The notes: generated by a model from the sequence alone, not told the origin. 64,000 nt of DNA from Syntrophomonadaceae bacterium (GCA_035412805.1 DAONVO010000002.1:26-64025), one strand, 5' to 3'. Shown: positions 3,051 through 49,250, counted from the stretch's first letter. Numbers and translations: made by a program.

Positions 3051-5684
3051 TTAATAACCGTTACTCTTCTGTCTGGGTTGGTGTTCAACCTGCAGAACTA
3101 TATACCCATTGTAAGCCGATAAAGTTACCGTATCTTCCGGGCCGATTTCACCGTTGATAATCTGGCGGGACAGGAGGGTTTCCACCTCATGCTGGATCAG
3201 TCTTCTTAAAGGACGGGCTCCATAGGCCGGATCAAAACCTTTATCAGCCAGAAGCTCCAAGGCGGTTCTATCCCAGCGCAGGTGCGCTTGCACATTCTGC
3301 CGAAAACGCAGAGCCAGATTCTTAAGCAGCAGTTCAGCGATGGCTTGAATCTGTTCCTTTTCCAAGGCATGGAAGACAATGGTTTCATCCACTCGATTCA
3401 AAAACTCCGGCCGGAAGTACTGTTTAAGCAGATCCGTGACTCGGGCTTTCATTAGCTGGTAATCGCCCCCGTTAGCCTGATACTCCAGGATCTCATGACT
3501 TCCTATATTAGAGGTCATAATCACTATGGTATTACGGAAATCTACGGTGCGCCCTTTACCGTCGGTTAAACGCCCATCATCCAGTATCTGTAATAGCACA
3601 TTGAATACATCATTATGAGCCTTTTCGATCTCATCGAACAGTATTACCGAGTAAGGCTTGCGCCGTACAGCCTCAGTCAGCTGACCGCCTTCATCATAAC
3701 CTACATAACCCGGTGGTGCACCGATCAAGCGGGCTACAGTATGCTTTTCCATGTATTCTGACATGTCAAGACGAATCATAGCCCGTTCATCATCAAATAA
3801 AGCTTCAGCTAGAGCTTTACTCAATTCTGTTTTACCTACCCCGGTGGGCCCCAGGAAAATAAAGCTGCCTACCGGCCGCTGGGGATCTTTTAAACCTGCC
3901 CGTGAGCGTAAAACCGCATCAGCCACGGCTTTTACAGCTTCTTTCTGACCGACAACCCTCCGGTGAAGAATCTCTTCCAAATGCAGCAGTTTTTCCCGTT
4001 CACCTTCCAGCAGCCGGCTAACCTGTATACCGGTCCAACGGCTAACCACCCGGGCAATATCTTCTTCGTCTACTTCCTCCTTCAGCAGCCTACTCTGCTG
4101 CTTACCCGCCAGAGCTTCCTGTTCCGCAATGAGACGACGTTCCAGTTCATTAAGCCGCCCGTATTTCAATTCGGCAATACGATTTAAATCATACTCCCGT
4201 TCGGCCCGTTCCATTTCGGTGCGTACTTCTTCCATTTCTTTTTTAATATCCCGTACCCGGGCAATAGCTTCCTTTTCAGATTGCCACTGAGCCTTCATAA
4301 CCTCGGATTCGCTGCGCAAATCCTGCAAATCTTTGAGCAGTAGTTGGAGCCTTTCTTTTGAGGCTTGATCGGTTTCCTTTTCCAAAGCAGCCGCTTCTAT
4401 TTCCAGCTGCATAATGCGCCGGGTTATATCGTCAAGTTCTGCCGGCAAGCTGTCAATCTCCGTACGCAGTTTGGCGGCTGCCTCATCCACCAGGTCGATG
4501 GCTTTATCGGGTAAAAAGCGATCGGATATATAGCGGTCTGAAAGAACCGCTGCTGCTACCAGAGCTGCATCTTTGATACGGACCCCGTGATGCACCTCAT
4601 AACGTTCCCGGAGGCCCCGCAAGATGGAAATGGTGTCTTCCACGCTGGGTTGGTCAACCATCACCGGTTGGAAGCGCCGTTCGAAAGCCGCGTCTTTTTC
4701 GATATGTTTGCGGTATTCATCCAAAGTGGTTGCGCCTATTGCCCGAAGTTCTCCCCGGGCGAGCATGGGTTTTAGAATATTGCTGGCGTCCATGGCACCT
4801 TCCGCAGCACCAGCTCCCACCACGGTATGCAGCTCGTCAATAAATAAAATAATCCGGCCGTTAGAGTCCTGAACCTCTTTTAATACCGCTTTGAGTCTTT
4901 CTTCAAATTCCCCTCGATATTTAGCTCCTGCCACAAGTGAACCCATATCCAAAGCCATTAAGTGCTTATCCTTTAAGCCTTCCGGAACATCCTTGCTGGT
5001 GATCCTCCGGGCCAAACCTTCCACTATGGCTGTTTTACCTACTCCCGGCTCACCAATTAATACCGGATTGTTTTTAGTCCGCCGGGACAGAATTTCAATT
5101 ACCCGGCGTATCTCCTCATCTCTTCCAATTACCGGATCTAGCTTGCCTTCGGCTGCCATCTTGGTCAAATCCCGTCCATAGCGGGTCAAAGCCTCGTAGC
5201 TGTCTTCCGGATTATCACTGGTCACCCGTTGTGCTCCGCGCACACTGCGCATGGCTTGCAGCATTTTTTCCCGGGATAAACCAATCCGGGTCAGTAAATT
5301 TTTTAGTTCTGGTTCGCTGTCAGCCAATAATGCCAACAGCAGGTGTTCCACACTAATATATTCATCTTTTAAATTTTGAGCTTCTTTTTCTGCCCGGCTT
5401 ATTACCCGGGACAAAGCCCCACTCATATATACCGGTCCTTCATAGCCATATACCGAAGGCACAGCGTCCAAAATCTGATTCAATTGAGTTCCTAACCAAC
5501 TAGTGTTTATCCCTGCCTGTTCCAGTAGCCGTGGAGTAATGCCCCCTTCCTGTTGCAACAGAGCAGCCAGCAGGTGTTTTCCTCCTATTTCCTGGTGGTG
5601 TCTATCCGCCGCTATTTGCTGGGCAGCCATAAAGGCCTCCCGTGATTTCTGGGTCAATCTCTCCAAATTCATTCTCATCACCAC
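3051..5684 (-). CDS. clpB: ATP-dependent chaperone/disaggregase ClpB
   Basis: 877-aa ORF with two AAA+ modules (GEPGVGKT and GPTGVGKT Walker A) and a long coiled-coil middle domain. The exact start is ambiguous among GTG/ATG codons at 5672-5684. Confidence 0.95.
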
Positions 5685-20282: not shown

Positions 20283-20490
20283 TGAGAACGTCAAATAGTA
20301 CAAAAATTAGATTGCCACGCTTACGGCTCGCTGTATTCGTCGTGAATCAAAGTAGTAGCGGAAACTTAAGTTTCCGCTACGGTAATCGCTGGTGCGGAAG
20401 CTAAAGCTTACGCTACCTCATTTTCACAGCAACTTTAATTGTGTTCACGACCTAGAGGTTTTGAACACATCAGGGGGCCCCGAAGGGAGT
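20283..20490 (-). ncRNA. candidate structured small RNA (about 200 nt) downstream of mnmA; possibly 6S-like
   Basis: Gene-free 290-bp gap ending in a strong terminator. It contains a perfect 11-bp hairpin GTAGCGGAAAC-TTAA-GTTTCCGCTAC and long-range TCGTGAA/TTCACGA and AAAGT/ACTTT pairings. The 5' segment CCCUGAUGUGUUCA resembles the 6S closing-stem sequence. Confidence 0.35.
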
Positions 20491-22994: not shown

Positions 22995-22998
22995 TCCA

Positions 22999-23025
22999 CC
23001 CCCAGCTGTTGTATACAGCTGGGGG
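22999..23025. terminator. terminator-like hairpin between convergent rarA and trxA
   Basis: Perfect 11-bp stem CCCCCAGCTGT / ACAGCTGGGGG with a 5-nt loop. The flanking U-tracts are weak. Confidence 0.5.
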
Positions 23026-23055
23026 CTACACGGTAACCAGCTAGTTTTTTCAGAT

Positions 23056-23379
23056 TTATATAAACTGATCTATCATTTTTTGCAGCTGAGCTTTGCCTTG
23101 AGCACCCACCACACGCTGAGCTTCATTACCATCCTTAAAGATAACCAGAGTTGGGATGCCACGAATCCCGAACTGGGCTGCCAGTTCTTTGTTTTCATCT
23201 ACGTTTACTTTTCCTACCTTTAGCTTACCTTCATAATCGGCAGCTAGACTTTCCACTACGGGACCAACCATTTTGCATGGTCCACACCAGGGAGCCCAAA
23301 AGTCTACCAACACCGGCAGTGTTGACTGCTTAACTTCCTGATCAAAATTATCATTGGTCAGCGTTTTTACTTCAGCCAT
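23056..23379 (-). CDS. trxA: thioredoxin
   Basis: 107 aa with the WCGPC active site. Confidence 0.95.
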   Translation of the reverse strand: MAEVKTLTNDNFDQEVKQSTLPVLVDFWAPWCGPCKMVGPVVESLAADYEGKLKVGKVNVDENKELAAQFGIRGIPTLVIFKDGNEAQRVVGAQGKAQLQKMIDQFI

Positions 23380-23409
23380 TAATATGCCCTCCTTCTTATT
23401 TGCCCGGAG

Positions 23410-23679
23410 CTAGCGGATCAAACGACCCATTAAAGTTACGATTTCCCGCAAGCCCTCTCCATCAGGGTCGTTTCGTGTAACCGACAGCAGACAATCCCGG
23501 GCATGATTTTCAAAAATTAATATTCCCACCTGATTGATGGCTGATTTGACAGCCGCTACCTGGTTCAGCACTTCCCCACAATCAGCTTCTGCTTCAATCA
23601 TTCGCTGAATGCCTCGTACCTGACCTTCTATGCGGCGCAACCTCATTAAAATGTTTTTGCGAGCTTCTTCCTCGCTCAT
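23410..23679 (-). CDS. CsoR/RcnR-family metal-sensing transcriptional repressor
   Basis: 89 aa, DUF156 pattern RLRRIEGQVRGIQRMIE, conserved Cys residues (ADCGE, ARDC). Confidence 0.85.
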   Translation of the reverse strand: MSEEEARKNILMRLRRIEGQVRGIQRMIEAEADCGEVLNQVAAVKSAINQVGILIFENHARDCLLSVTRNDPDGEGLREIVTLMGRLIR

Positions 23680-23684
23680 CCATA

Positions 23685-23701
23685 TACCCCCTTAGGGTAT
23701 G
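23685..23701. promoter_or_regulatory. CsoR-type operator palindrome ATACCC-N5-GGGTAT
   Basis: GC-tract inverted repeat of the kind bound by CsoR-family repressors. It overlaps the RBS of the repressor gene. Confidence 0.5.
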
Positions 23702-23711
23702 TTTAAAATAA

Positions 23712-23740
23712 GTATATAAAGACCCTAAAATAAAGTCAAC
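23712..23740 (-). promoter_or_regulatory. sigma-A promoter (TTGACT-N17-TATACT) for the csoR-trxA unit
   Basis: On the minus strand, -35 is at 23740-23735 and -10 at 23717-23712, just upstream of the operator. Confidence 0.5.
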
Positions 23741-23820
23741 TATATATTAGTTTATTCTTTATTCAGAAAGCTAATAGCAGTCAGGCAGTTTAATATTATA
23801 GTATTCCCTGTCATTCAAAT

Positions 23821-23849
23821 AAAAACAGAGGTGGCCTCATGACCACCTC
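23821..23849 (-). terminator. rho-independent terminator
   Basis: On the minus strand, GAGGTGG-loop-CCACCTC is followed by TGTTTTT. Confidence 0.7.
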
Positions 23850-23873
23850 CTTCAAAAATCCAACTAGCTCCAG

Positions 23874-23981
23874 CTATATTAAAAATAAATAGTAAATGGC
23901 GGCTCCTACACCCATAGCAATTAACGCCCATATAAGGGTGCGAAGCATTTCCATCTTAACCTGCTTGGCAAGTTCTTCCAA
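23874..23981 (-). CDS. 35-aa hydrophobic peptide with its own RBS and terminator
   Basis: GAAGGAGG, then 8 nt, then TTG. The peptide reads (M)EELAKQVKMEMLRTLIWALIAMGVGAAIYYLFLI. A terminator follows at 23821-23849. Confidence 0.4.
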   Translation of the reverse strand: MEELAKQVKMEMLRTLIWALIAMGVGAAIYYLFLI

Positions 23982-24055
23982 TATTAATGCCTCCTTCAAA
24001 AGCTGTAGCGGCTTAGACTTTATCCCATTATAACACAAGCCCAAAACTATGCAGC

Positions 24056-27355: not shown

Positions 27356-27623
27356 TATCCCCTTTCCCCATATTCAGCTTTAAGTATTTTATTTTCCACA
27401 ATAACACCGATTTTTCCTCTCAATATTAAGTTTAAATTTTTACAGAAGTTAATCTATTCATATTAGGATCTTTTTCTTCATAAGTAATTAAGTGGCATTA
27501 TAGTTTTTTAATTGGTATTAAAGAAGGATTTCACATATCAAGGGGAGAATAATGATGGTGGTGTGGTCAGGCATATTTATGTCTGAGTGTAAAGCGAAAA
27601 ATAATTTCTAAGGGGGAAAGCTA

Positions 27624-28904
27624 ATGCAGAACGTGTATGTTGTGGAGGCTGCACGTACACCAGTAGCCCGTGCAGGAAAACAGTCTTGGTTTACCAACAT
27701 TCGTGCAGAGGAACTATCTGCCTTTGTCTTCAAAGAGCTGAGAAAGAGAATCGGCCTGGAAGACAAAGCAAAACAAGGTATCATTGATGACGTAGTGTGG
27801 GCAACCACCGCCAATGCCTTTATGGAACAGGGGTTGAACATAGGCCGCCTGGCTTGGATCCTGTCCGATGGTTCCTATGATGTTCCTGGTTGTACGGTTG
27901 ACCGGTTCTGTGCTTCTGGATTGAACTCCATTCAGTTTGCCATCGCCACCATGATGGTTGGCTGGGGCGGAGACGTTGAGATTGCCGGTGGTGTCCAACA
28001 TATGACCCATATTCCTATGGGTGCCGGTGCTGATCTCCATCCTGATTTGGGCAATTACATGAATTTAGGAGCAATTAACATGGGTTACACTGCTGAAATC
28101 GTAGCCCGCCGCTTTAACGTTACCCGTGAACAGCAAGACGAGTTTGCTATGGAATCCCACCTGAAGTGCGCCGCTGCTCAGGCTGCCAACAAGGTTAAAG
28201 ATGTCATTATCCCCATTCAAGTTAAAGTTCCGGCTAAAGGTGCCAAGGATACCAACCCGCACAACATGCCTGCCCTGTATGTAGCCAGCGATCACCTGGC
28301 TAAAGCCGCTGCTGAAAAAGGTGAAGAACTGGTAGAATGTGTCGTAGCCCGTGACCAGGGTGTACGCCCTGACACCAATATGGAAACTCTGGCCAAGATG
28401 CCCACTGTTTTCATGCAGGACGAAGCTGCCACCGTTACCGCTGGTAACGCCTCTCAGATCAATGACGCTGCTGCCGGTGTTGTCCTGGCCACCGACGAAG
28501 GTGCCAAGGCACTGGGCAAGAAGCCGATTATGAAGATGGTCAGCTGGGCAGTAGTTGGTCTGGAACCCGATATCATGGGTATCGGTCCTGCCCTGGCTAT
28601 ACCCAAGGTTCTCAAGAGAGCCGGTATGACCAAAGATCAGATCGATCTGTGGGAAATTAATGAAGCTTTCGCATCCCAGGCATACTACTGCAGAGAAACC
28701 CTGGGACTGCCCAAAGATCGTGTAAATGTATGGGGATCTGGTATTTCCATCGGCCATCCTCTGGCCTGCACCGGTGCCCGTATTGCCGCCGATATTACAG
28801 CCATGTTCAGAGATCCCGACTTTGCCGATGTAGAATACATCGTCGAGTCCATGTGTATCGGTCACGGTCATGGTGCTGCTGCTATTTGGCAGAGAGTAAA
28901 ATAA
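27624..28904 (+). CDS. acetyl-CoA C-acyltransferase (thiolase), copy 1
   Basis: 426 aa with active-site Cys (CASGLNS) and C-terminal GHPLACTG and CIGHGHG motifs. RBS is AAGGGGGA. Confidence 0.9.
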   Translation: MQNVYVVEAARTPVARAGKQSWFTNIRAEELSAFVFKELRKRIGLEDKAKQGIIDDVVWATTANAFMEQGLNIGRLAWILSDGSYDVPGCTVDRFCASGLNSIQFAIATMMVGWGGDVEIAGGVQHMTHIPMGAGADLHPDLGNYMNLGAINMGYTAEIVARRFNVTREQQDEFAMESHLKCAAAQAANKVKDVIIPIQVKVPAKGAKDTNPHNMPALYVASDHLAKAAAEKGEELVECVVARDQGVRPDTNMETLAKMPTVFMQDEAATVTAGNASQINDAAAGVVLATDEGAKALGKKPIMKMVSWAVVGLEPDIMGIGPALAIPKVLKRAGMTKDQIDLWEINEAFASQAYYCRETLGLPKDRVNVWGSGISIGHPLACTGARIAADITAMFRDPDFADVEYIVESMCIGHGHGAAAIWQRVK

Positions 28905-28968: not shown

Positions 28969-29265
28969 GTGTCAAAATGTCTATAATGACCGGGGAAATG
29001 TCAATCTTGCGTAATTTCTAAATATTTTTGATTTATTTTTGCATTGTAAATTACTAGACTATTAATTTATGTTATGAAATAATTTAACCAGAACCACCCT
29101 TCCCCATACATCAGGTACAGCTTAAATGCTGGCCAATATTACGAAAATTTAATCTTTTTCCGGGTTATAGATTCCTAACTACATTTATGAAATACTAATA
29201 GGTAAGCAGCAGGCTTGTAATTACAGCCTGTTTAGTGCGAAAACAAAAATTAAGGGGGAAAATGC

Positions 29266-30546
29266 ATGCAGAACGTATATGTTGTGGAGGCTGCACGTAC
29301 ACCAGTAGCCCGTGCAGGAAAACAGTCTTGGTTTACCAACATTCGTGCAGAGGAACTATCTGCCTTTGTCTTCAAAGAGCTGAGAAAGAGAATCGGCCTG
29401 GAAGACAAAGCAAAACAAGGTATCATTGATGACGTAGTGTGGGCAACCACCGCCAATGCCTTTATGGAACAGGGGTTGAACATAGGCCGCCTGGCTTGGA
29501 TCCTGTCCGATGGTTCCTATGATGTTCCTGGTTGTACGGTTGACCGGTTCTGTGCTTCTGGATTGAACTCCATTCAGTTTGCCATCGCCACCATGATGGT
29601 TGGCTGGGGCGGAGACGTTGAGATTGCCGGTGGTGTCCAACATATGACCCATATTCCTATGGGTGCCGGTGCTGATCTCCATCCTGATTTGGGCAATTAC
29701 ATGAATTTAGGAGCAATTAACATGGGTTACACTGCTGAAATCGTAGCCCGCCGCTTTAACGTTACCCGTGAACAGCAAGACGAGTTTGCTATGGAATCCC
29801 ACCTGAAGTGCGCCGCTGCTCAGGCTGCCAACAAGGTTAAAGATGTCATTATCCCCATTCAAGTTAAAGTTCCGGCTAAAGGTGCCAAGGATACCAACCC
29901 GCACAACATGCCTGCCCTGTATGTAGCCAGCGATCACCTGGCTAAAGCCGCTGCTGAAAAAGGTGAAGAACTGGTAGAATGTGTCGTAGCCCGTGACCAG
30001 GGTGTACGCCCTGACACCAATATGGAAACTCTGGCCAAGATGCCCACTGTTTTCATGCAGGACGAAGCTGCCACCGTTACCGCTGGTAACGCCTCTCAGA
30101 TCAATGACGCTGCTGCCGGTGTTGTCCTGGCCACCGACGAAGGTGCCAAGGCACTGGGCAAGAAGCCGATTATGAAGATGGTCAGCTGGGCAGTAGTTGG
30201 TCTGGAACCCGATATCATGGGTATCGGTCCTGCCCTGGCTATACCCAAGGTTCTCAAGAGAGCCGGTATGACCAAAGATCAGATCGATCTGTGGGAAATT
30301 AATGAAGCTTTCGCATCCCAGGCATACTACTGCAGAGAAACCCTGGGACTGCCCAAAGATCGTGTAAATGTATGGGGATCTGGTATTTCCATCGGCCATC
30401 CTCTGGCCTGCACCGGTGCCCGTATTGCCGCCGATATTACAGCCATGTTCAGAGATCCCGACTTTGCCGATGTAGAATACATCGTCGAGTCCATGTGTAT
30501 CGGTCACGGTCATGGTGCTGCTGCTATTTGGCAGAGAGTAAAATAA
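29266..30546 (+). CDS. acetyl-CoA C-acyltransferase (thiolase), copy 2
   Basis: Protein is 100% identical to copy 1. The antisense-frame ORFs are identical too, so the DNA is essentially identical. The only coding difference seen is synonymous (codon 5, GTG vs GTA). Confidence 0.9.
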   Translation: MQNVYVVEAARTPVARAGKQSWFTNIRAEELSAFVFKELRKRIGLEDKAKQGIIDDVVWATTANAFMEQGLNIGRLAWILSDGSYDVPGCTVDRFCASGLNSIQFAIATMMVGWGGDVEIAGGVQHMTHIPMGAGADLHPDLGNYMNLGAINMGYTAEIVARRFNVTREQQDEFAMESHLKCAAAQAANKVKDVIIPIQVKVPAKGAKDTNPHNMPALYVASDHLAKAAAEKGEELVECVVARDQGVRPDTNMETLAKMPTVFMQDEAATVTAGNASQINDAAAGVVLATDEGAKALGKKPIMKMVSWAVVGLEPDIMGIGPALAIPKVLKRAGMTKDQIDLWEINEAFASQAYYCRETLGLPKDRVNVWGSGISIGHPLACTGARIAADITAMFRDPDFADVEYIVESMCIGHGHGAAAIWQRVK

Positions 30547-30578
30547 TCCAGCCGAATAGTTTTATATTAAGCTTATTC

Positions 30579-30609
30579 AGCGGGAGACCTTATAGGTTTC
30601 CCGCTTTTT
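30579..30609 (+). terminator. rho-independent terminator of thiolase copy 2
   Basis: Same hairpin as at 28937-28968, offset by exactly 1642 bp. Confidence 0.8.
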
Positions 30610-30687
30610 ATATGGCTATTATATCTTTACCTGAATAAAAGCTGATTTCCTTAGCTAAGCTACTAAAAACGGCTGGGGGTAATTATT

Positions 30688-31536
30688 GTGCGAACTCTTT
30701 GGAAAGGTGCAGTCAGCTTCGGCCTGGTTAATATACCTATCAAAATGTATGTGGCTACTGAACGGAAAGACATCAAGTTCAACTACCTGCATAAAGAGTG
30801 CATGTCTCCCATTCAGTACCGCAAGTTTTGTCCCAATTGTAACCGGGAAATTGCCAGTGAAGAAATTGTGCGCGGCTATGAATACCAGAAAGGCAATTTT
30901 GTAGTTATTAATGAGGAGGATTTGGAACGCATTCCTTTGGAGTCCACCAAAACTATTGACATCCTGGACTTTGTGGATTTAGCCCAGGTTGATCCGATTT
31001 ACTTTGATAAGACCTATTACCTGGAACCATCCCAGGGCGGTGAAAAAGCTTACACCCTTCTGATCGAAGCCATGACGCAAACTAGTAAGGTGGCTATCGC
31101 CAAAGTTATAATTCGCTCCAAACAAACTTTGGCTGCTCTGAGAGTTAAGGACCAGGTTTTAATAATGGAAACCATTTTCTGGCCGGATGAAATCCGTTCC
31201 CCTTCTGCCCTGGACCTAGGAGTAGACCGGGTAAAACTCCATGACAATGAAATAAAAATGGCGGTCAGTCTCATCGAAAACCTATCTACCGACTTTGAAC
31301 CGGCCAAGTATCAGGATGAACATCGCCAGGCTTTGTGGGAACTAATTGAAAGCAAGATCGTAGGAAAAGAAGTCGTAGCTGCGGCTCCGGCAGCTGACCG
31401 CGGCAATGTGGTGGATTTGATGGAGGCTTTAAAAGCCAGCGTCAAACTGGCGGAAGAAAACCGCAATGCCCAGCAGGCTGATTCCGAACCACGCCAGGCT
31501 TCCCGGGGGCGCCGCAAAACCAAAACCGGGAGTTAG
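30688..31536 (+). CDS. ku: Ku protein (NHEJ DNA-end binding)
   Basis: 282 aa. The N-terminus RTLWKGAVSFGLVNIPIKMY is typical of bacterial Ku, and the C-terminal tail is basic. GTG start after GGGGGT. Confidence 0.92.
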   Translation: MRTLWKGAVSFGLVNIPIKMYVATERKDIKFNYLHKECMSPIQYRKFCPNCNREIASEEIVRGYEYQKGNFVVINEEDLERIPLESTKTIDILDFVDLAQVDPIYFDKTYYLEPSQGGEKAYTLLIEAMTQTSKVAIAKVIIRSKQTLAALRVKDQVLIMETIFWPDEIRSPSALDLGVDRVKLHDNEIKMAVSLIENLSTDFEPAKYQDEHRQALWELIESKIVGKEVVAAAPAADRGNVVDLMEALKASVKLAEENRNAQQADSEPRQASRGRRKTKTGS

Positions 31537-31541
31537 CATCC

Positions 31542-32474
31542 GTGGTTGAAGTACCTGGTTTGGCTTTAGTTGAGCCAATGATGCCTATACTGGTCAAAGA
31601 AATAATTGAAGGCCTCGAGTATGTTTACCAGGTTAAATGGGATGGGGTGCGTATGCTGGCTTACCTTTCCGCAGGAAGGGTAACCCTGGTAAACAGGCGT
31701 GGCCACCTGCGCACCGGGCAGTACCCGGAACTGCAGGAGTTGGCTTCCTTGTTGAAAGTGCCTGCAGCAATATTGGATGGAGAATTGGTGGTCCTAAAAA
31801 ATGGCAAACCCAGTTTTGCATCGATTTTGAAAAGGGATTTAAGCGGCCGGCAAGCTGATCACCTTAAGAAACTTTATCCTATCCACTATATGGTTTTCGA
31901 CATCCCCTTTGCCGGTCGGGACCTGCGTAATCTGTCTCTGATGGAACGCCAAAGAGTACTGGAGCAAACTCTGGTGAAAACCGAATGGGTACATACCGTG
32001 GAGAATTTCAGCGCCGGTCACAGCCTTTTCGAAGCCGTAAAAGCACAGGATATGGAAGGAATTGTTATTAAACGGTCTACTTCTCCATACATAAGCGGAA
32101 AAAAACATCGTGACTGGCTGAAAGTCAAATACCGGCGCACCCAATATTGCGTGATTGGCGGGTATACCTTAAACGGAACCACAGTAAATGCCCTCCTACT
32201 GGGAGTCTATCACAATCAGAATCTACTCTATGTGGGCAAAGCCGGTACCGGTTTAAAACAGGAGGAATGGAGCGTATTAACCCGGGAATTATCCCGTATG
32301 TCCATCTCTCATTCACCCTTTGTCAACAAACCTCCCGCTCGGGGATACTATTTTGTACACCCCCGGTTAACGGTTAAAATCGAATTTGCAGAATGGACGG
32401 AGAGCCTTACTTTGCGGTCCCCGGTCATAACCGGCTTCAGCAACAAGCCGGCTGAAGACTGCCGCTTAGAATGA
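31542..32474 (+). CDS. ATP-dependent DNA ligase (LigD ligase domain, stand-alone)
   Basis: 310 aa with the adenylation motif VKWDGVR (KxDG) and an OB-fold C-terminus. Confidence 0.9.
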   Translation: MVEVPGLALVEPMMPILVKEIIEGLEYVYQVKWDGVRMLAYLSAGRVTLVNRRGHLRTGQYPELQELASLLKVPAAILDGELVVLKNGKPSFASILKRDLSGRQADHLKKLYPIHYMVFDIPFAGRDLRNLSLMERQRVLEQTLVKTEWVHTVENFSAGHSLFEAVKAQDMEGIVIKRSTSPYISGKKHRDWLKVKYRRTQYCVIGGYTLNGTTVNALLLGVYHNQNLLYVGKAGTGLKQEEWSVLTRELSRMSISHSPFVNKPPARGYYFVHPRLTVKIEFAEWTESLTLRSPVITGFSNKPAEDCRLE

Positions 32475-32491
32475 GTTGTAAGGAGGTACCT

Positions 32492-33400
32492 ATGAAAGAA
32501 CAGGTCACAATCGCCAGCCGGGAATTTGCTCTTTCCAACCTGGAAAAAGTGCTGTGGCCGGAAGATGGATATACCAAAGGGGAACTTATCAACTATTATG
32601 TGCAGGTGGCTCCCTATCTGCTTCCCCACTTAAGCGGGCGTCCTCTGGTATTGACCCGTTTCCCCGACGGCATCCACAGCAAAAGCTTTTATCAAAAAAA
32701 TGCCCCCGATTATCTGCCGGAATGGATCAGAACCTTCTCCTGGTATTCAGCTGATTCCCAGCGGGACATTAATTTCATAGTCGCAGATGAGCCAGCGACT
32801 CTGGCCTGGCTGGCTAATCAAGCCTGTATTGAAATGCATCCCTGGCTGTCAAGCATCCACAGCCTTAACTATCCTGATTTTGCAGTAATCGACCTGGATC
32901 CCTCCAAGGAAAGCAGTTACCGGGATGTAATCGATATTGCCCTAGTGGTCAAAGAACTGCTGGACAATTTGGACCTGCGCTCTTATCCTAAAACCTCTGG
33001 ATCAGAAGGATTGCATATTTACATCCCTATTATCAATTCCTACACCTATGAGCAGGTCCGTAAATTTGCCCAGGTGGTGGCAGCTCTCGTCGTAGAAGTG
33101 CTTCCTCAAATAGCTACTATTGAACGCACTGTAAAAATGCGAGGCAACAAAGTATATGTAGACTACCTGCAAAATGCCCTGGGTAAAACCCTCAGCAGCG
33201 TGTACAGCGTGCGTCCCCGTCCAGGTGCTCCTGTATCAACCCCTCTTTTATGGGACGAGATAACTCAGGTAACACCTGCCCAGTTTAACATAAAGACTAT
33301 TTTTCCCCGTTTACAGGAAAAGGGAGATTTGTTTGCGCCGGTATTATACGACCGGCAAAGCCTGGACCAAGCCTGCCGGAAGCTGGGTGTGTCCCTGTAA
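32492..33400 (+). CDS. LigD polymerase/primase (AEP) domain protein, stand-alone
   Basis: About 302 aa, LigD-Pol pattern (LSNLEKVLWPEDGYTKGELINYY...DLDP). ATG at 32492 follows the AAGGAGG RBS. Confidence 0.88.
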   Translation: MKEQVTIASREFALSNLEKVLWPEDGYTKGELINYYVQVAPYLLPHLSGRPLVLTRFPDGIHSKSFYQKNAPDYLPEWIRTFSWYSADSQRDINFIVADEPATLAWLANQACIEMHPWLSSIHSLNYPDFAVIDLDPSKESSYRDVIDIALVVKELLDNLDLRSYPKTSGSEGLHIYIPIINSYTYEQVRKFAQVVAALVVEVLPQIATIERTVKMRGNKVYVDYLQNALGKTLSSVYSVRPRPGAPVSTPLLWDEITQVTPAQFNIKTIFPRLQEKGDLFAPVLYDRQSLDQACRKLGVSL

Positions 33401-33466
33401 TTCTGAGACCCCAATCAATGGTGTATCAACTGAAGAACAGGCCATGATAAATGAAAACATGCCTCA

Positions 33467-33540
33467 CGGCTAATACTCCTGCATCCTGGCTGACACTCCT
33501 GCAAAACCGTGGTTAGCGTAGAGCGGCATAGAGGTTGCCA
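33467..33540 (+). repeat. fragment F1 of the structured element (3' arm + tail only)
   Basis: CGGCTAATACTCCTGCATCCTGGCTGACACTCCTGC...GGCATAGAG matches 34153-34220 and 49112-49175. Confidence 0.8.
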
Positions 33541-33700
33541 TGTTCCTTGCAGGAGCTCTTAGTTGCCAGTAGGTTGCCCTTCGCACCTGTTCCGTCGTCA
33601 CGATATAGTAAACGGCTCGATGTGCGTCTCAGGGGGTACCGGGCTAAACAAACATCCTGTTTGATAGCCCTCTTGGGACATCCTATCCCTCGCCCCCCTT
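33541..33700 (-). repeat. fragment F2, inverted and degenerate copy of the element
   Basis: The reverse complement carries TTAGCCCGG, CGAGCCGTT and TGCGAAG in element order. Diverged and internally deleted. Confidence 0.5.
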
Positions 33701-33790
33701 CGCCCGCCCATCTTCACCGACTATATCGGACTCCTTCACCAAGGTGCTCATGGCAAACCCACTGTCAAACTATTTTAGTAAAATGATAAC

Positions 33791-33909
33791 ATCGCTGCAC
33801 GGCTTAAGCAGGGAGTATTAGCTGGGCGAGTGACGTACGACGTGCCGTTGCAGGGTCCATCAGTAGTCCTTTAGGGCAATGACACATTAGGAAACCATCT
33901 TCACAGCAA
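33791..33909 (+). repeat. fragment F3, 5' arm joined to the terminal TTCACAGCAA motif (internal deletion variant)
   Basis: ATCGCTGCACGGCTTAAGCAGGGAGTATTAGCTGGGCGAGTGACGTACGACGTGCCGTTGCA is near-identical to 48900-48961. It ends in CTTCACAGCAAT. Confidence 0.8.
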
Positions 33910-33945
33910 TTATCACCTGTGGTACAGACCACGAATGAAAAAATA

Positions 33946-34294
33946 ATTGCATGGCTTAGGAAGAAATATTAGCCCGGCGAGCGACTTACGACGAGCCGTT
34001 GCTACCCACAGCGAAACTGAGGGCTGCGAAGCGGAGCGAGAAACAGGATGTTTCGAGCAGCAAGTACTGAGTGCATGGATGCCGAATTACGAGCGGACCG
34101 CTTCGCACCGAAGTAAGCTGGTGGGTTGCAGGCGAGGAGTCCCGGAGCGAGCCGGCTAATACTCCTGCATCCTGGCTGACACTCCTGCCAAGTTGTGGTT
34201 AGCGCAGGTGGACATAGAGATCGCCACGCGCTACGCGCTCGCGATGACAGTACAGCTGTCTTTTGCACTAACACGAGGACAGTTTTCACAGCAA
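33946..34294 (+). repeat. full copy A of an unclassified ~330-nt structured interspersed element (candidate ncRNA or non-autonomous mobile element)
   Basis: Aligns with 48900-49228 along its length at roughly 85% identity by eye. The core 33967-34161 folds as a nested long hairpin. The tail ends in TTTTCACAGCAAT. Confidence 0.85.
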
Positions 34295-34358
34295 TATCTT
34301 AAATAATCTACGCCAATCTGCGTCTGATTTTTTACGAGCAACACAGGCGATGGGCCTT

Positions 34359-35246
34359 TTATCTTGCGGTATAGGTAATTCCGGCGGGATGGAAATGAGT
34401 TTTTATGCTGCGGTTGTCCAGAAGATAACTTATTACTGCCGATACACTGGACCAAGCCAAATAGAATTGAACCGTATTTACAGTCAGCTTTCTCTTTTCA
34501 ATGATGCAGCTCACCAGTTGCTCCCGGTTCATAGCCTGCCCTTGCAGTGCCCCTAGTACATCGTTAATTAACCCCAACAGCCATTCCCGGTTTTGCTCAA
34601 TAACGGCTAAAGGTTGGTCAACCCAACCTCCATGGGAGATACACAGGTGATCGTACCGGCTTTCTGCCAGAGTCTCTAGAGCTGTCAGCTGACTTTTCAC
34701 ATCAGCTACAACCGGGCAGGGAAAGGTATGATAAGCCTGGCTGGACAGCAGACTGTCCCCGGCAAAAAGAACCTGGTCTGGAGTAAAAACTCCTATTTGT
34801 CCGGGAGTATGACCGCTCAGGTCAAAAAACTGTATGGACACACCTTGCATAACGCAGTTTCCTGGTGAGACAGCTTCCACTTCCGGGGAGGCGGGTGGGA
34901 CTATAAAGCGATTGTCCAAGGATCTGGGGGGATGGGCGGAAAAAAGCGTATAGGGAATCAGCCAAGGATTTTCCAAAAAAATTTTCTCGGGAGCAGAAGC
35001 GTAAATATCTGCTCCGGTTGCTTCAGCTATCAACTTATTGGCTCCACAGTGATCAGCATGGGCATGGGTATTAATGATGGCTGATACTCTCCAACCCTGC
35101 TCGTTCAAAAAGTCCAATACCTGCTGACCATGAGCAGCCTCACCGCTGTCTATCAACAGGCAGTTATGTTTATCAATAAGGTACACACCTATTGTTGCTG
35201 CAGGAGTAGCCAGACAATAAGTTTTTCCTGCTATGTGAGTTAGCAT
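34359..35246 (-). CDS. MBL-fold metallo-hydrolase
   Basis: 295 aa with the HAHADH (HxHxDH) motif. Confidence 0.8.
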   Translation of the reverse strand: MLTHIAGKTYCLATPAATIGVYLIDKHNCLLIDSGEAAHGQQVLDFLNEQGWRVSAIINTHAHADHCGANKLIAEATGADIYASAPEKIFLENPWLIPYTLFSAHPPRSLDNRFIVPPASPEVEAVSPGNCVMQGVSIQFFDLSGHTPGQIGVFTPDQVLFAGDSLLSSQAYHTFPCPVVADVKSQLTALETLAESRYDHLCISHGGWVDQPLAVIEQNREWLLGLINDVLGALQGQAMNREQLVSCIIEKRKLTVNTVQFYLAWSSVSAVISYLLDNRSIKTHFHPAGITYTAR

Positions 35247-35248
35247 GA

Positions 35249-36241
35249 TTAGTTTTCATCCCCCATAATCAATCCCAACCACTGTTGACGGTCCATCTCT
35301 GGTATAAACTTATGCAATTCATGGGAGTTCAGCAGCTTTTCCACTGCCTCCCGGTTATAGGCTGTACCCTGCAGAGCTTGTTCCAGCCTCTCTATATCCT
35401 GACCGGTGAAAAAATCTCCGTATATCTTACAAAGGGCTATACGTCCCTTTTTCACTTCCAGCCGTATATCAATCTGCCCCCAGGGATAACGCCGGTTACG
35501 CTGCAGGTTATATTGGGGTGATTGACCGTAATTCCATTCCCAGAGGCGGTACTTGTTACCGGCCAGCTGATTGACTCTTTCTTTCTCCTCAAGGGTAAGC
35601 TCCCTGGCAGGTTCCAGGGGCCAGTATTCACTTACTGTCTGAATTAGCGCATCCTGCAGATCCTGGATGGAAAGGGGTTTAGGCAGGTGATCAGCTATAT
35701 TGGTCACCCGGCTGCTTACTGATTTTACCCCTTTTGAGGCCATTTTTTCTGGATTCACATTAAGTACTTTTTGCATAATATCTAAATCGGTATCAAATAG
35801 CAGGGTTCCATGATGAAGCAGCCGCTTTTTCCCAATAAATTGGGCATTGCCAGAGAATTTCCGGCCGGCAATGGTCAGGTCATTGCGGCCGCTTAGCTCG
35901 GCAGCAATACCCAATTTGTGCAAAGCAGTGAGCACGGGTTGGGCAAACCTGGCAAAACTGTGGTCGCCAGACAAAGCCACCACGAAGGTAAAGTTGAGAT
36001 TGCCCAGATCGTGATAGACCGCGCCTCCGCCGGACATGCGTCGAACTACTACAATATCATTTTCCCGGGCAAAGACCTGGTTAACTTCCTCAGCCGTGTT
36101 CTGATTCCGGCCTACGATGACCGCCGGCTGGTTCTGCCACAACATAAACCATTCACTGTCATCAGGAGTCTGGGTTATAAGGTATTCCTCTAAAGCTATA
36201 TTAAAACATGGATCATGGGAGGGATTTAGCAAGTGGTACAC
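35249..36241 (-). CDS. lplA: lipoate--protein ligase A
   Basis: 330 aa, LplA pattern (RRMSGGGAVYHDLGN...KFSGNAQ) plus a C-terminal accessory domain. Confidence 0.9.
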   Translation of the reverse strand: MYHLLNPSHDPCFNIALEEYLITQTPDDSEWFMLWQNQPAVIVGRNQNTAEEVNQVFARENDIVVVRRMSGGGAVYHDLGNLNFTFVVALSGDHSFARFAQPVLTALHKLGIAAELSGRNDLTIAGRKFSGNAQFIGKKRLLHHGTLLFDTDLDIMQKVLNVNPEKMASKGVKSVSSRVTNIADHLPKPLSIQDLQDALIQTVSEYWPLEPARELTLEEKERVNQLAGNKYRLWEWNYGQSPQYNLQRNRRYPWGQIDIRLEVKKGRIALCKIYGDFFTGQDIERLEQALQGTAYNREAVEKLLNSHELHKFIPEMDRQQWLGLIMGDEN

Positions 36242-48683: not shown

Positions 48684-48899
48684 TCAACAAACACCTCATT
48701 GAATGGGATCGGCAGCCTATTTTACCGTTCCCCAACATACACTAATTAATGTATCACTTTTATAATGGTAATGCCATTAATTAACCAAATACATTACATA
48801 CTCAACCAGTATTGTTGTGAAAACTCCTTTTACAGGAGTCGAAGTGTGACAGAAGGTTTGCCCTTAGCACTTGTGGCACAGGCCACGATAAGTGCAAAC

Positions 48900-49228
48900 A
48901 TCGCTGCACGGCTTAAGCAGGAAGTATTAGCCGGGTGAGCGACGTACGACGAGCCGTTGCAACACACGGCGAAACTGAGGGCTGCGAAACGGAGCGAGAA
49001 ACAGGATGTTTCGAGCAGCGAGAACTGAGTGCATGGATGCCGAATTCCGAGCGGTCCGTTTCGCACCGAAGTAAGCCGATGTGTTGCAGGTGAGGAGTCT
49101 TGGAGCGAGCCGGTTAATACCCCTGCATCCCGGCTAACACTCCTGCCGTGCCGTGGTAAGCTTAGACCGGCATAGAGTTTGCGCGCTCTTCGCGCTCACC
49201 AGAACACATAAGAAAGCATTTTCACAGG
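48900..49228 (+). repeat. full copy B of the structured interspersed element
   Basis: Collinear with 33946-34294. Core hairpin is at 48925-49119. The tail ends in ATTTTCACAGGAA. Confidence 0.85.
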
Positions 49229-49250
49229 AAGGAAGGGGTTATTGCCCCAC

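Follow-up and report, generated by a model that had tools for sequence, protein, structure and literature searches.

A gene-free gap beside the ku-ligD genes of a Syntrophomonadaceae bacterium is a nest of MITE-like hairpin repeats

A 958-bp noncoding gap (33401-34358), bounded by the stop codon of a LigD primase-polymerase gene and by a convergent metallo-beta-lactamase (MBL) gene, was studied in a 64,000-nt stretch of a Syntrophomonadaceae genome (the window). We found that the gap is a nest of four repeat units, two intact and two internally deleted. The repeats form a new, genus-restricted, MITE-like family of hairpin-forming intergenic sequences with three subfamilies, named T1, T2 and T3. 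Our preferred reading, to which we give a probability of about 0.62, is that the gap is an accretion site of Syntrophomonas-specific noncoding MITE-like repeats that spread in trans, decay by deletion and are possibly kept as CsrA-binding RNA.

The gap and its four repeat units

Genes for Ku, LigD ligase and two thiolases lie 5' of the gap, and those for lipoate-protein ligase and dihydrolipoamide dehydrogenase lie 3' of it; the neighbors of the repeats in the window are housekeeping genes. The two thiolase genes (426 aa each; 27624-28904 and 29266-30546) are tandem duplicates, with 97% identity over 300 nt at the start of each (27598-27897 versus 29240-29539). The limits of the gap given by the first-pass annotation agree with the ORF context, as does its description as the largest noncoding stretch: the sole longer ORF-poor region (22995-24055) has a thioredoxin-like ORF and another small ORF. 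A coding reading of the repeats was rejected. No Pfam match was obtained and no reading frame is open throughout the copies, which accords with the earlier remark that ORFs within the gap are not conserved between copies.

The first-pass annotation had also raised the objection that the fragments might be artefacts of assembly. That the mosaic arose from collapsed or mis-joined repeats is scarcely credible. An independent JGI metagenome contig (L158, 5243 bp), which encodes the exact LigD polymerase protein, matches window positions 30325-35568 at 99.96% identity (1 mismatch and 1 gap in 5244 positions), spans the whole gap in the same arrangement and has the same 957-958 bp in its Ku-to-MBL gap. 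The copies also differ from each other by 11-15%, and are therefore distinguishable in assembly. Two short-read Logan contigs do break at 33496 and 33498, within an exact 30-nt repeat, as is expected of k-mer assemblers.

Table 1. Positions of the repeat units, their parts and the adjoining genes in the window
Feature	Position	Strand	Remarks
LigD primase-polymerase gene	32471-33400		
F1, T1 copy without rod	33437-33540	+	
F1 leader	33437-33471		ACAGGCCATGATAAATGAAAACATGCCTCACGGCT
F1, last 11 nt of 3' arm	33472-33482		
F1 duplicated 3' arm	33483-33502		
F1 tail	33503-33540		
Linker between T2 rod and inverted tail/H-like module	33541-33564	-	
F2, complete T2 rod	33565-33766	-	minimum free energy -104.1 kcal/mol, z -6.57
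F3, T1 copy without apex	33781-33910	+	
Copy A leader (L module)	33911-33959	+	TATCACCTGTGGTACAGACCACGAATGAAAAAATAATTGCATGGCTTAG
Copy A T1 rod	33960-34168	+	hairpin of ~209 nt
Copy A apex hairpin 1	34036-34058	+	GC-GA-GAAAC-AGGAU-GUUUC-GA-GC; loop CAGGAUG, GGA 34046-34048
Copy A apex hairpin 2	34071-34083	+	GUGC-AUGGAU-GCC; ANGGAX/AYGGAY hexaloop, GGA 34077-34079
Copy A duplicated 3' arm	34169-34188	+	
Copy A tail	34190-34226	+	
H hairpin module (REP-like)	34217-34249	+	
T module	34283-34295	+	TTTTCACAGCAAT
MBL gene	34359-35246		convergent
Copy B, T1	48811-49231	+	second full copy in the window
Copy B inverted T module	48811-48823		followed by leader
Copy B rod	48917-49126		
Copy B duplicated arm	49127-49146		followed by tail
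Copy B T-like end	49219-49231		

The unit F1 is a T1 copy that lacks its rod (Table 1). Its leader is followed at once by the final 11 nt of the 3' arm, so that a hairpin of ~200 nt is missing between CGGCT/GGCT microhomologies (CGGCT in the leader, CCGGCT in the 3' arm); the deletion junction lies in CGGCT at 33467-33471. The 3' arm and tail were correctly recognized in the first-pass annotation (33467-33540 is 85% identical to copy A, 34153-34226, and 81% to copy B, 49111-49184), but the abrupt start that it described is not one, as the leader is present.

F2 is an intact member of the second subfamily and no fragment of a T1 element. It forms a long imperfect hairpin whose apex hairpins, GGGAU-AGGAU-GUCCC and CAAAC-AGGAU-GUUUG, both carry AGGAU loops. 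It had been called inverted, diverged and internally deleted. The inversion was confirmed, but the rest gives way to a complete rod (z -6.6) with full-length identity of 86-94% to at least 14 other full-length copies. The linker junction next to this rod was seen again in a metagenome locus (L138).

F3 is a T1 copy without an apex. Its leader and 5' arm are intact up to GTTGCA (33847-33852), and its decayed 3' side retains GCAATGACA (33876-33884) and the T module TCTTCACAGCAAT (33898-33910). Positions 33781-33852 are 89% identical to copy B (48890-48961), and the description as a 5' arm followed by the terminal motif held to that extent. The direct join was replaced by loss of the apex and further decay: GTTGCA also occurs in the 3' arm because GTTGCAAC is self-complementary, and the apex was thus lost between two direct repeats. 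As read from the sequence, both F1 and F3 look like slipped-strand deletions across a hairpin, not truncated insertions. Copy A is full-length and 86% identical to copy B (33958-34224 versus 48916-49182). Its basal stem is weakened by three substitutions; the rod of other copies is lengthened by pairing between leader and tail.

Three subfamilies with a common tip

The units are imperfect palindromes of 200-270 nt, and full units reach about 430 nt. All are thus within the MITE size range (<600 bp), with no Pfam match and no conserved open frame. The arms are unlike between subfamilies. The tip is common to T1, T2 and T3 and consists of a junction with two short hairpins that carry CAGGAUG/AUGGAU loops. 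Folding z-scores were -3.0 and -2.8 for T1, -6.6 for T2 and -5.7 for T3.

Alignments of T1 comprised first 16 and later 27 distinct copies, taken from the window, the MAG Syntrophomonas sp. DTU018 and digester metagenomes. The tip of its rod is a three-way junction with the hairpins GAAAC-AGGAU-GUUUC and GC-AUGGAU-GC. The stems are interrupted by GCGAGC opposite GCGAGC, apparently unpaired; in these segments tandem sheared G.A pairs would be expected, with Watson-Crick pairs on either side, and one pair flanking the motif is changed from C-G to U-A in 7 sequences. Optional modules accompany the T1 rod: a leader (TATCACCTG..ACAGGCCACGATAAATGAAAACATCGCTGCACGGCTT) can pair with the tail (AAGCCGTGGTTAGCG...), 20 nt of the 3' arm can be present in duplicate, and a small hairpin resembling REPs, named H (GAGATYGCCACG...GCTCGCRATGACA), and the T motif can be added. 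H and T modules are also found without rods. An example is a third repeat locus at window 20300-20440, between two minus-strand genes, where an H-like (TAGATTGCCACG) and a T module (TTTTCACAGCAAC) are present and a perfect hairpin with an 11-bp stem (GTAGCGGAAACTTAAGTTTCCGCTAC) is enclosed.

T2 and T1 have ~45 nt around the apex in common (GGGC.G.CGAAGGGG.GCGAG..ACAGGATGT..CGAG), and their arms differ. A chimera at L010:7589-7819, with the same element in L137 and L144, consists of a T2 5' half and a T1 apex and 3' half joined at CGAAGGGG.GCGAG, which is evidence of recombination between subfamilies. T3 was found by a relaxed apex pattern search. It is a 271-nt rod with the apex hairpins GCGAG-CGAC-AGGAU-GUCG-CGAG and UCCC-AUGGAC-GGGA. 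Some T3 variants (L188:7770-7945; also L173, L176, L193, L215 and others) have insert modules of ~52 nt (ACCCTGCGGGTACTCCTGATGTTCCATCCTTCGGATGTCACTATTAAGGTTGC-like) nested at several rod positions, and a short variant keeps the terminal inverted repeats (TIRs) and basal stem around a different interior without the GGA apex.

Paired cells made up 95.2% of the alignment of 27 T1 sequences. Twelve pairs were changed on both sides, compared with 4.4 +/- 1.5 in shuffles (0/500 reached 12) and 3-6 in slid controls. Compensatory changes were present in 8 of the 73 pairs of a 7-sequence T2 alignment. The T1 apex is nearly invariant, and GGA is kept in 27/27 copies in hairpin 1 and in 26/27 in hairpin 2. 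In a DNA palindrome, arm-to-arm repair could produce compensatory changes as an alternative to selection; counts of G-U versus A-C gave a weak strand preference. The rods diverge ~10 times more slowly than the synonymous sites of the flanking genes: rod differences of 8% and 13.5% were found between the window and two orthologous loci (L014 and L015, described below) for which flanking-gene dS was 0.75-1.06 and above 1.4, respectively. Such slow divergence may reflect either purifying selection or recent spread between species. The invariant apex, the covarying stems and the slow divergence together suggest that the rods are kept by selection. The pattern is unusual in that the central tip, and not the ends, is kept across three subfamilies.

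Orthologous sites, distribution and mobility

The gene order thiolase-Ku-ligase-polymerase/MBL-LplA-Lpd is conserved in DTU018 (L014) and in the MAG MFD13483 (L015). Both loci begin inside the thiolase gene, and its copy number is unreadable there. The first-pass annotation had proposed a comparison of this intergenic region among relatives, and the gaps of the two related species were found to hold different repeat subsets. The 958 bp of the window contain F1, the minus-strand T2 rod, F3 and copy A. The DTU018 gap (466 bp) has H/T modules and one T1 rod in copy A's place and strand (92% identical). The MFD13483 gap (427 bp) has a single T2 rod, inverted relative to that of the window (86.5% identical, L015:4902-5122), inside another repeat, a 30-bp inverted one. 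Between thiolase and Ku, DTU018 has a further block of repeats, 590 bp long and including a T1 rod, and the window has an empty site at this position (GGCTATTA/TATCTTTACC). An orthologue of copy B's locus was absent from the loci examined.

Other features were noted at these sites. A different repeat family (GATGCAAGAGGGGACGGTTCTTTCTGTCAT; L015:4800-4890 and 5160-5225, and L002) occurs both in tandem and as the perfect 30-bp inverted repeats on either side of the L015 T2 rod, and these could account for the inverted position of that rod with respect to the window. The LigD polymerase ORF of DTU018 terminates in an inverted T module (TTGCTGTGAAAT, L014:4715-4724), so that the repeat supplies the last codons and the stop; the protein has 310 aa, versus 309 aa in the window.

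The family occurs almost only in Syntrophomonadaceae. A 22-nt core occurs 12 times in the DTU018 MAG and once in a Syntrophothermus-labelled MAG, and BLAST adds further copies; the DTU018 loci examined hold at least 14 T1 rods and at least 4 T2 copies. T3 is present at 12 or more loci in S. wolfei subsp. methylbutyratica JCM 14075 and also in related MAGs. A metagenome scan gave 34 loci, all from bioreactors or digesters and all T1 or T2, with 83-94% identity. The high-coverage contig L141 corresponds to DTU018 locus L012 and apparently has an unrelated, artefact-like segment. No match to the repeats was obtained by blastn against phage and plasmid collections. A loose two-hairpin pattern matched 25 viral contigs, none with real similarity. 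As in MITEs, the many copies are dispersed among unrelated genes, and no recurrent flanking protein or transposase was found within 3 kb of them. Only 2 of the 34 copies with both neighbors called lie between divergent genes. The orientation of the apex relative to the upstream gene is 20:20, which does not favor a role in sense 3'-UTRs. At other loci, too, T1 and T2 lie side by side and some copies have internal deletions (L126, L213); chimeras were likewise found (L010).

Evidence of transposition came from T3. This subfamily has 16-bp TIRs (GACTCTACTGCAAAAA/TTTTTGCAGYGGAATC) and an exact 6-bp AT-rich target-site duplication in 13 of 17 complete copies, and is therefore a bona fide MITE. The search for duplications at copy ends suggested in the first-pass annotation was thus positive for T3 and negative for the two subfamilies of the window, T1 and T2. 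T1 and T2 are palindromic throughout; their ends are thus inverted repeats, and no sharp terminus was defined (mapping of palindrome ends by local alignment was noisy). The T module was rejected as a terminal repeat, as it gave no pairs with a 6-bp duplication. No autonomous element with ends matching the repeats was found among the loci examined.

The mobility of T1 and T2 is one that we infer. The first-pass annotation saw repeated insertion or recombination of a mobile or recombinogenic element in the gap, not a single housekeeping RNA gene. That view broadly stands, given the multicopy and dispersed occurrence, the turnover at orthologous sites, the deletions and chimeras and the T3 duplications; its picture of truncated fragments of one element does not. 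In the model that we favor, copies would spread by means of a transposase supplied in trans, spread being demonstrated for T3 only and presumed for T1 and T2. They would land mostly between convergent or co-directional genes, beside earlier copies and other small repeat modules. Decay, as it reads in the sequence, would be due to slipped-strand deletion, the hairpin placing short direct repeats close to each other and the stretch between them being lost. F1, with its rod lost, and F3, with its apex lost, would be products of this decay, and copy A and the minus-strand T2 rod would have stayed intact. Selection would maintain the rod, the likeliest reason being that it is transcribed into an RNA in which the two GGA hairpins may bind a CsrA dimer.

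A possible RNA role, alternative readings and meaning

Rfam at gathering thresholds gave no match in the repeats over the whole window. The solitary hit lies elsewhere and is a c-di-GMP-I-GGC riboswitch aptamer (RF03167; 438-527, plus strand, 74.2 bits, E = 1e-15). In a permissive scan the sole similarity was to TwoAYGGAY (RF01731) of the Csr-Rsm clan, a motif reported from Clostridiales and gammaproteobacteria. T1 scored 29.3 bits (E = 0.03) and T3 20.5 bits over the full model, both below the gathering score of 43 bits, and T2 had no match. Loops of the AYGGAY type are confined to hairpin 2 of T1 (AUGGAU) and of T3 (AUGGAC), rather than being present in both terminal loops; the loop is AGGAU in T2 hairpin 2 and in hairpin 1 of all three subfamilies. 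As in TwoAYGGAY, an outer stem encloses two hairpins with A(Y)GGA(Y) loops. The family differs in the AGGAU of hairpin 1, the longer rods, the tandem G.A motifs, the multicopy occurrence and the demonstrable transposition of T3.

All apex loops fit patterns of CsrA sites, either CAGGAUG or AUGGAU/AUGGAC, with the two sites ~30 nt apart. This spacing could suit one CsrA dimer. The hairpin loops of CsrB contain CAGGA(U/A/C)G repeats; SELEX gave the consensus RUACARGGAUGU, and the highest affinity has been found for an ANGGAX hexaloop (PMC7652899, PMC4005645). The rods resemble sRNAs of the CsrB/RsmZ type in their CAGGAUG hairpin loops and one exact ANGGAX hexaloop, all of them predicted sites. 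They are unlike these sRNAs in having just two sites per unit, no recognizable promoter or terminator and a Firmicute host. No csrA gene was found in the 64-kb window (motif scan and tblastn) or in the Syntrophomonas loci examined (tblastn). No conserved sigma-70 promoter or intrinsic terminator was detected, and promoter- and terminator-like signals were at chance level. The leader was considered as a promoter and rejected: some copies have a TTGTCA-17-GATAAA-like sequence, but without the final T of the -10 box. A role of the repeats as RNA, or in CsrA regulation, is possible. The covarying stems, the invariant apex and the ~10-fold slower divergence are still compatible with a function at the RNA level.

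A similar loop design was observed outside the family. Downstream of a tRNA-Ser gene in genomes of Lysobacterales, Rhodanobacter, Dyella and Dokdonella lie units of 150-300 nt in tandem (L168:4130-4680; L166:7100-7720, minus strand; L206; L169:2500-3200; also L174, L186 and L187). Each unit repeats the 3' end of the tRNA and has two hairpins with CAGGAUG loops, one of which has the Syntrophomonas apex design (GGCGAG-GCAC-AGGAU-GUGC-CGAG). These arrays gave subthreshold Rfam matches to RtT (33 bits) and rsmX (25-30 bits), and csrA lies directly upstream of the tRNA-Ser in four of the loci. They are possibly unannotated CsrA/RsmA decoy arrays.

Features that favor an RNA function could also be explained if the rods were non-mobile chromosomal sRNA genes, that is, Csr/Rsm-type decoys related to TwoAYGGAY, and the gap a set of paralogues and pseudogenes produced by local duplication and deletion. 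The covarying stems, the invariant apex, divergence ~10 times below dS, the apex loops that match CsrA consensus sites, the subthreshold matches within the Csr-Rsm clan and the strand-specific structure given by the tandem G.A motifs all agree with such genes. We nevertheless think them unlikely, given the TIRs and 6-bp duplications of T3, the copies that are missing or different at orthologous sites, the random orientation relative to neighbors, promoter and terminator signals no better than chance and scores short of the Rfam gathering thresholds. Mobility and RNA function are combined in a third proposal, which we regard as rather doubtful. The rods might be mobile carriers of a CsrA-binding module, MITE spread having distributed the paired CAGGAUG/AUGGAU hairpins through Syntrophomonas genomes, where they would titrate or recruit CsrA when transcribed.

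A different mode of movement has less to recommend it. The rods and H hairpins could make up one mosaic system of REP/BIME-like elements, whose movement, in the form of single-stranded DNA, would depend on a RAYT or an IS200/IS605-type tyrosine transposase. In E. coli, BIME/REP mosaics combine small repeat modules in both orientations in intergenic regions at the 3' ends of genes. The family resembles them in its module combinations, in the use of both orientations and in its intergenic sites at gene 3' ends. The REP-like hairpin H, which occurs in mosaics, in both orientations and alone, the lack of target duplications in T1 and T2, the strand-specific fold with tandem G.A pairs and the avoidance of divergent promoter regions (2/34) would fit such a system. 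The sequences are unrelated, however, and the units much larger. The 3 kb around each copy contained no RAYT or TnpA gene, and no conserved 5' tetranucleotide comparable to GTAG in REPs could be recognized. In its TIRs and its duplication of a constant 6 bp, T3 behaves as a MITE of the cut-and-paste type. We consider this explanation quite improbable.

The preferred reading, an accretion of MITE-like repeats, places the family beside known MITEs and palindromic intergenic repeats such as Correia/CREE of Neisseria, BOX and RUP of pneumococcus and ERIC of enterobacteria. Like these, the repeats are short, noncoding, multicopy, intergenic and modular, and form long hairpins. Some copies are nested, truncated or chimeric, the element itself encodes no transposase, and T3 has TIRs and a target-site duplication of fixed length. 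Unlike in bacterial MITEs, the apex is the most conserved part and the ends the least, the three subfamilies have the apex and not the arms in common, T1 and T2 are without a detectable duplication, and divergence is far below the neutral rate.

These results explain a 1-kb gene-free stretch and provide names and coordinates for repeats that break short-read assemblies of Syntrophomonas, a genus of key fatty-acid-oxidizing syntrophs of anaerobic digesters. According to a 2020 review, no bacterium with FliW had been shown to have an sRNA that sequesters CsrA, and whether sRNAs and FliW jointly act on CsrA in any species was listed as open. If the CsrA-carrier proposal is true, no earlier family of CsrA antagonists or targets acting at the RNA level would be known from a Firmicute, and the rods would also be an example of a regulator's binding site dispersed by transposition. 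The conservation pattern and the CsrA-site-like loops provide a testable functional hypothesis, for which a cultured carrier of T3, S. wolfei subsp. methylbutyratica JCM 14075, is available.
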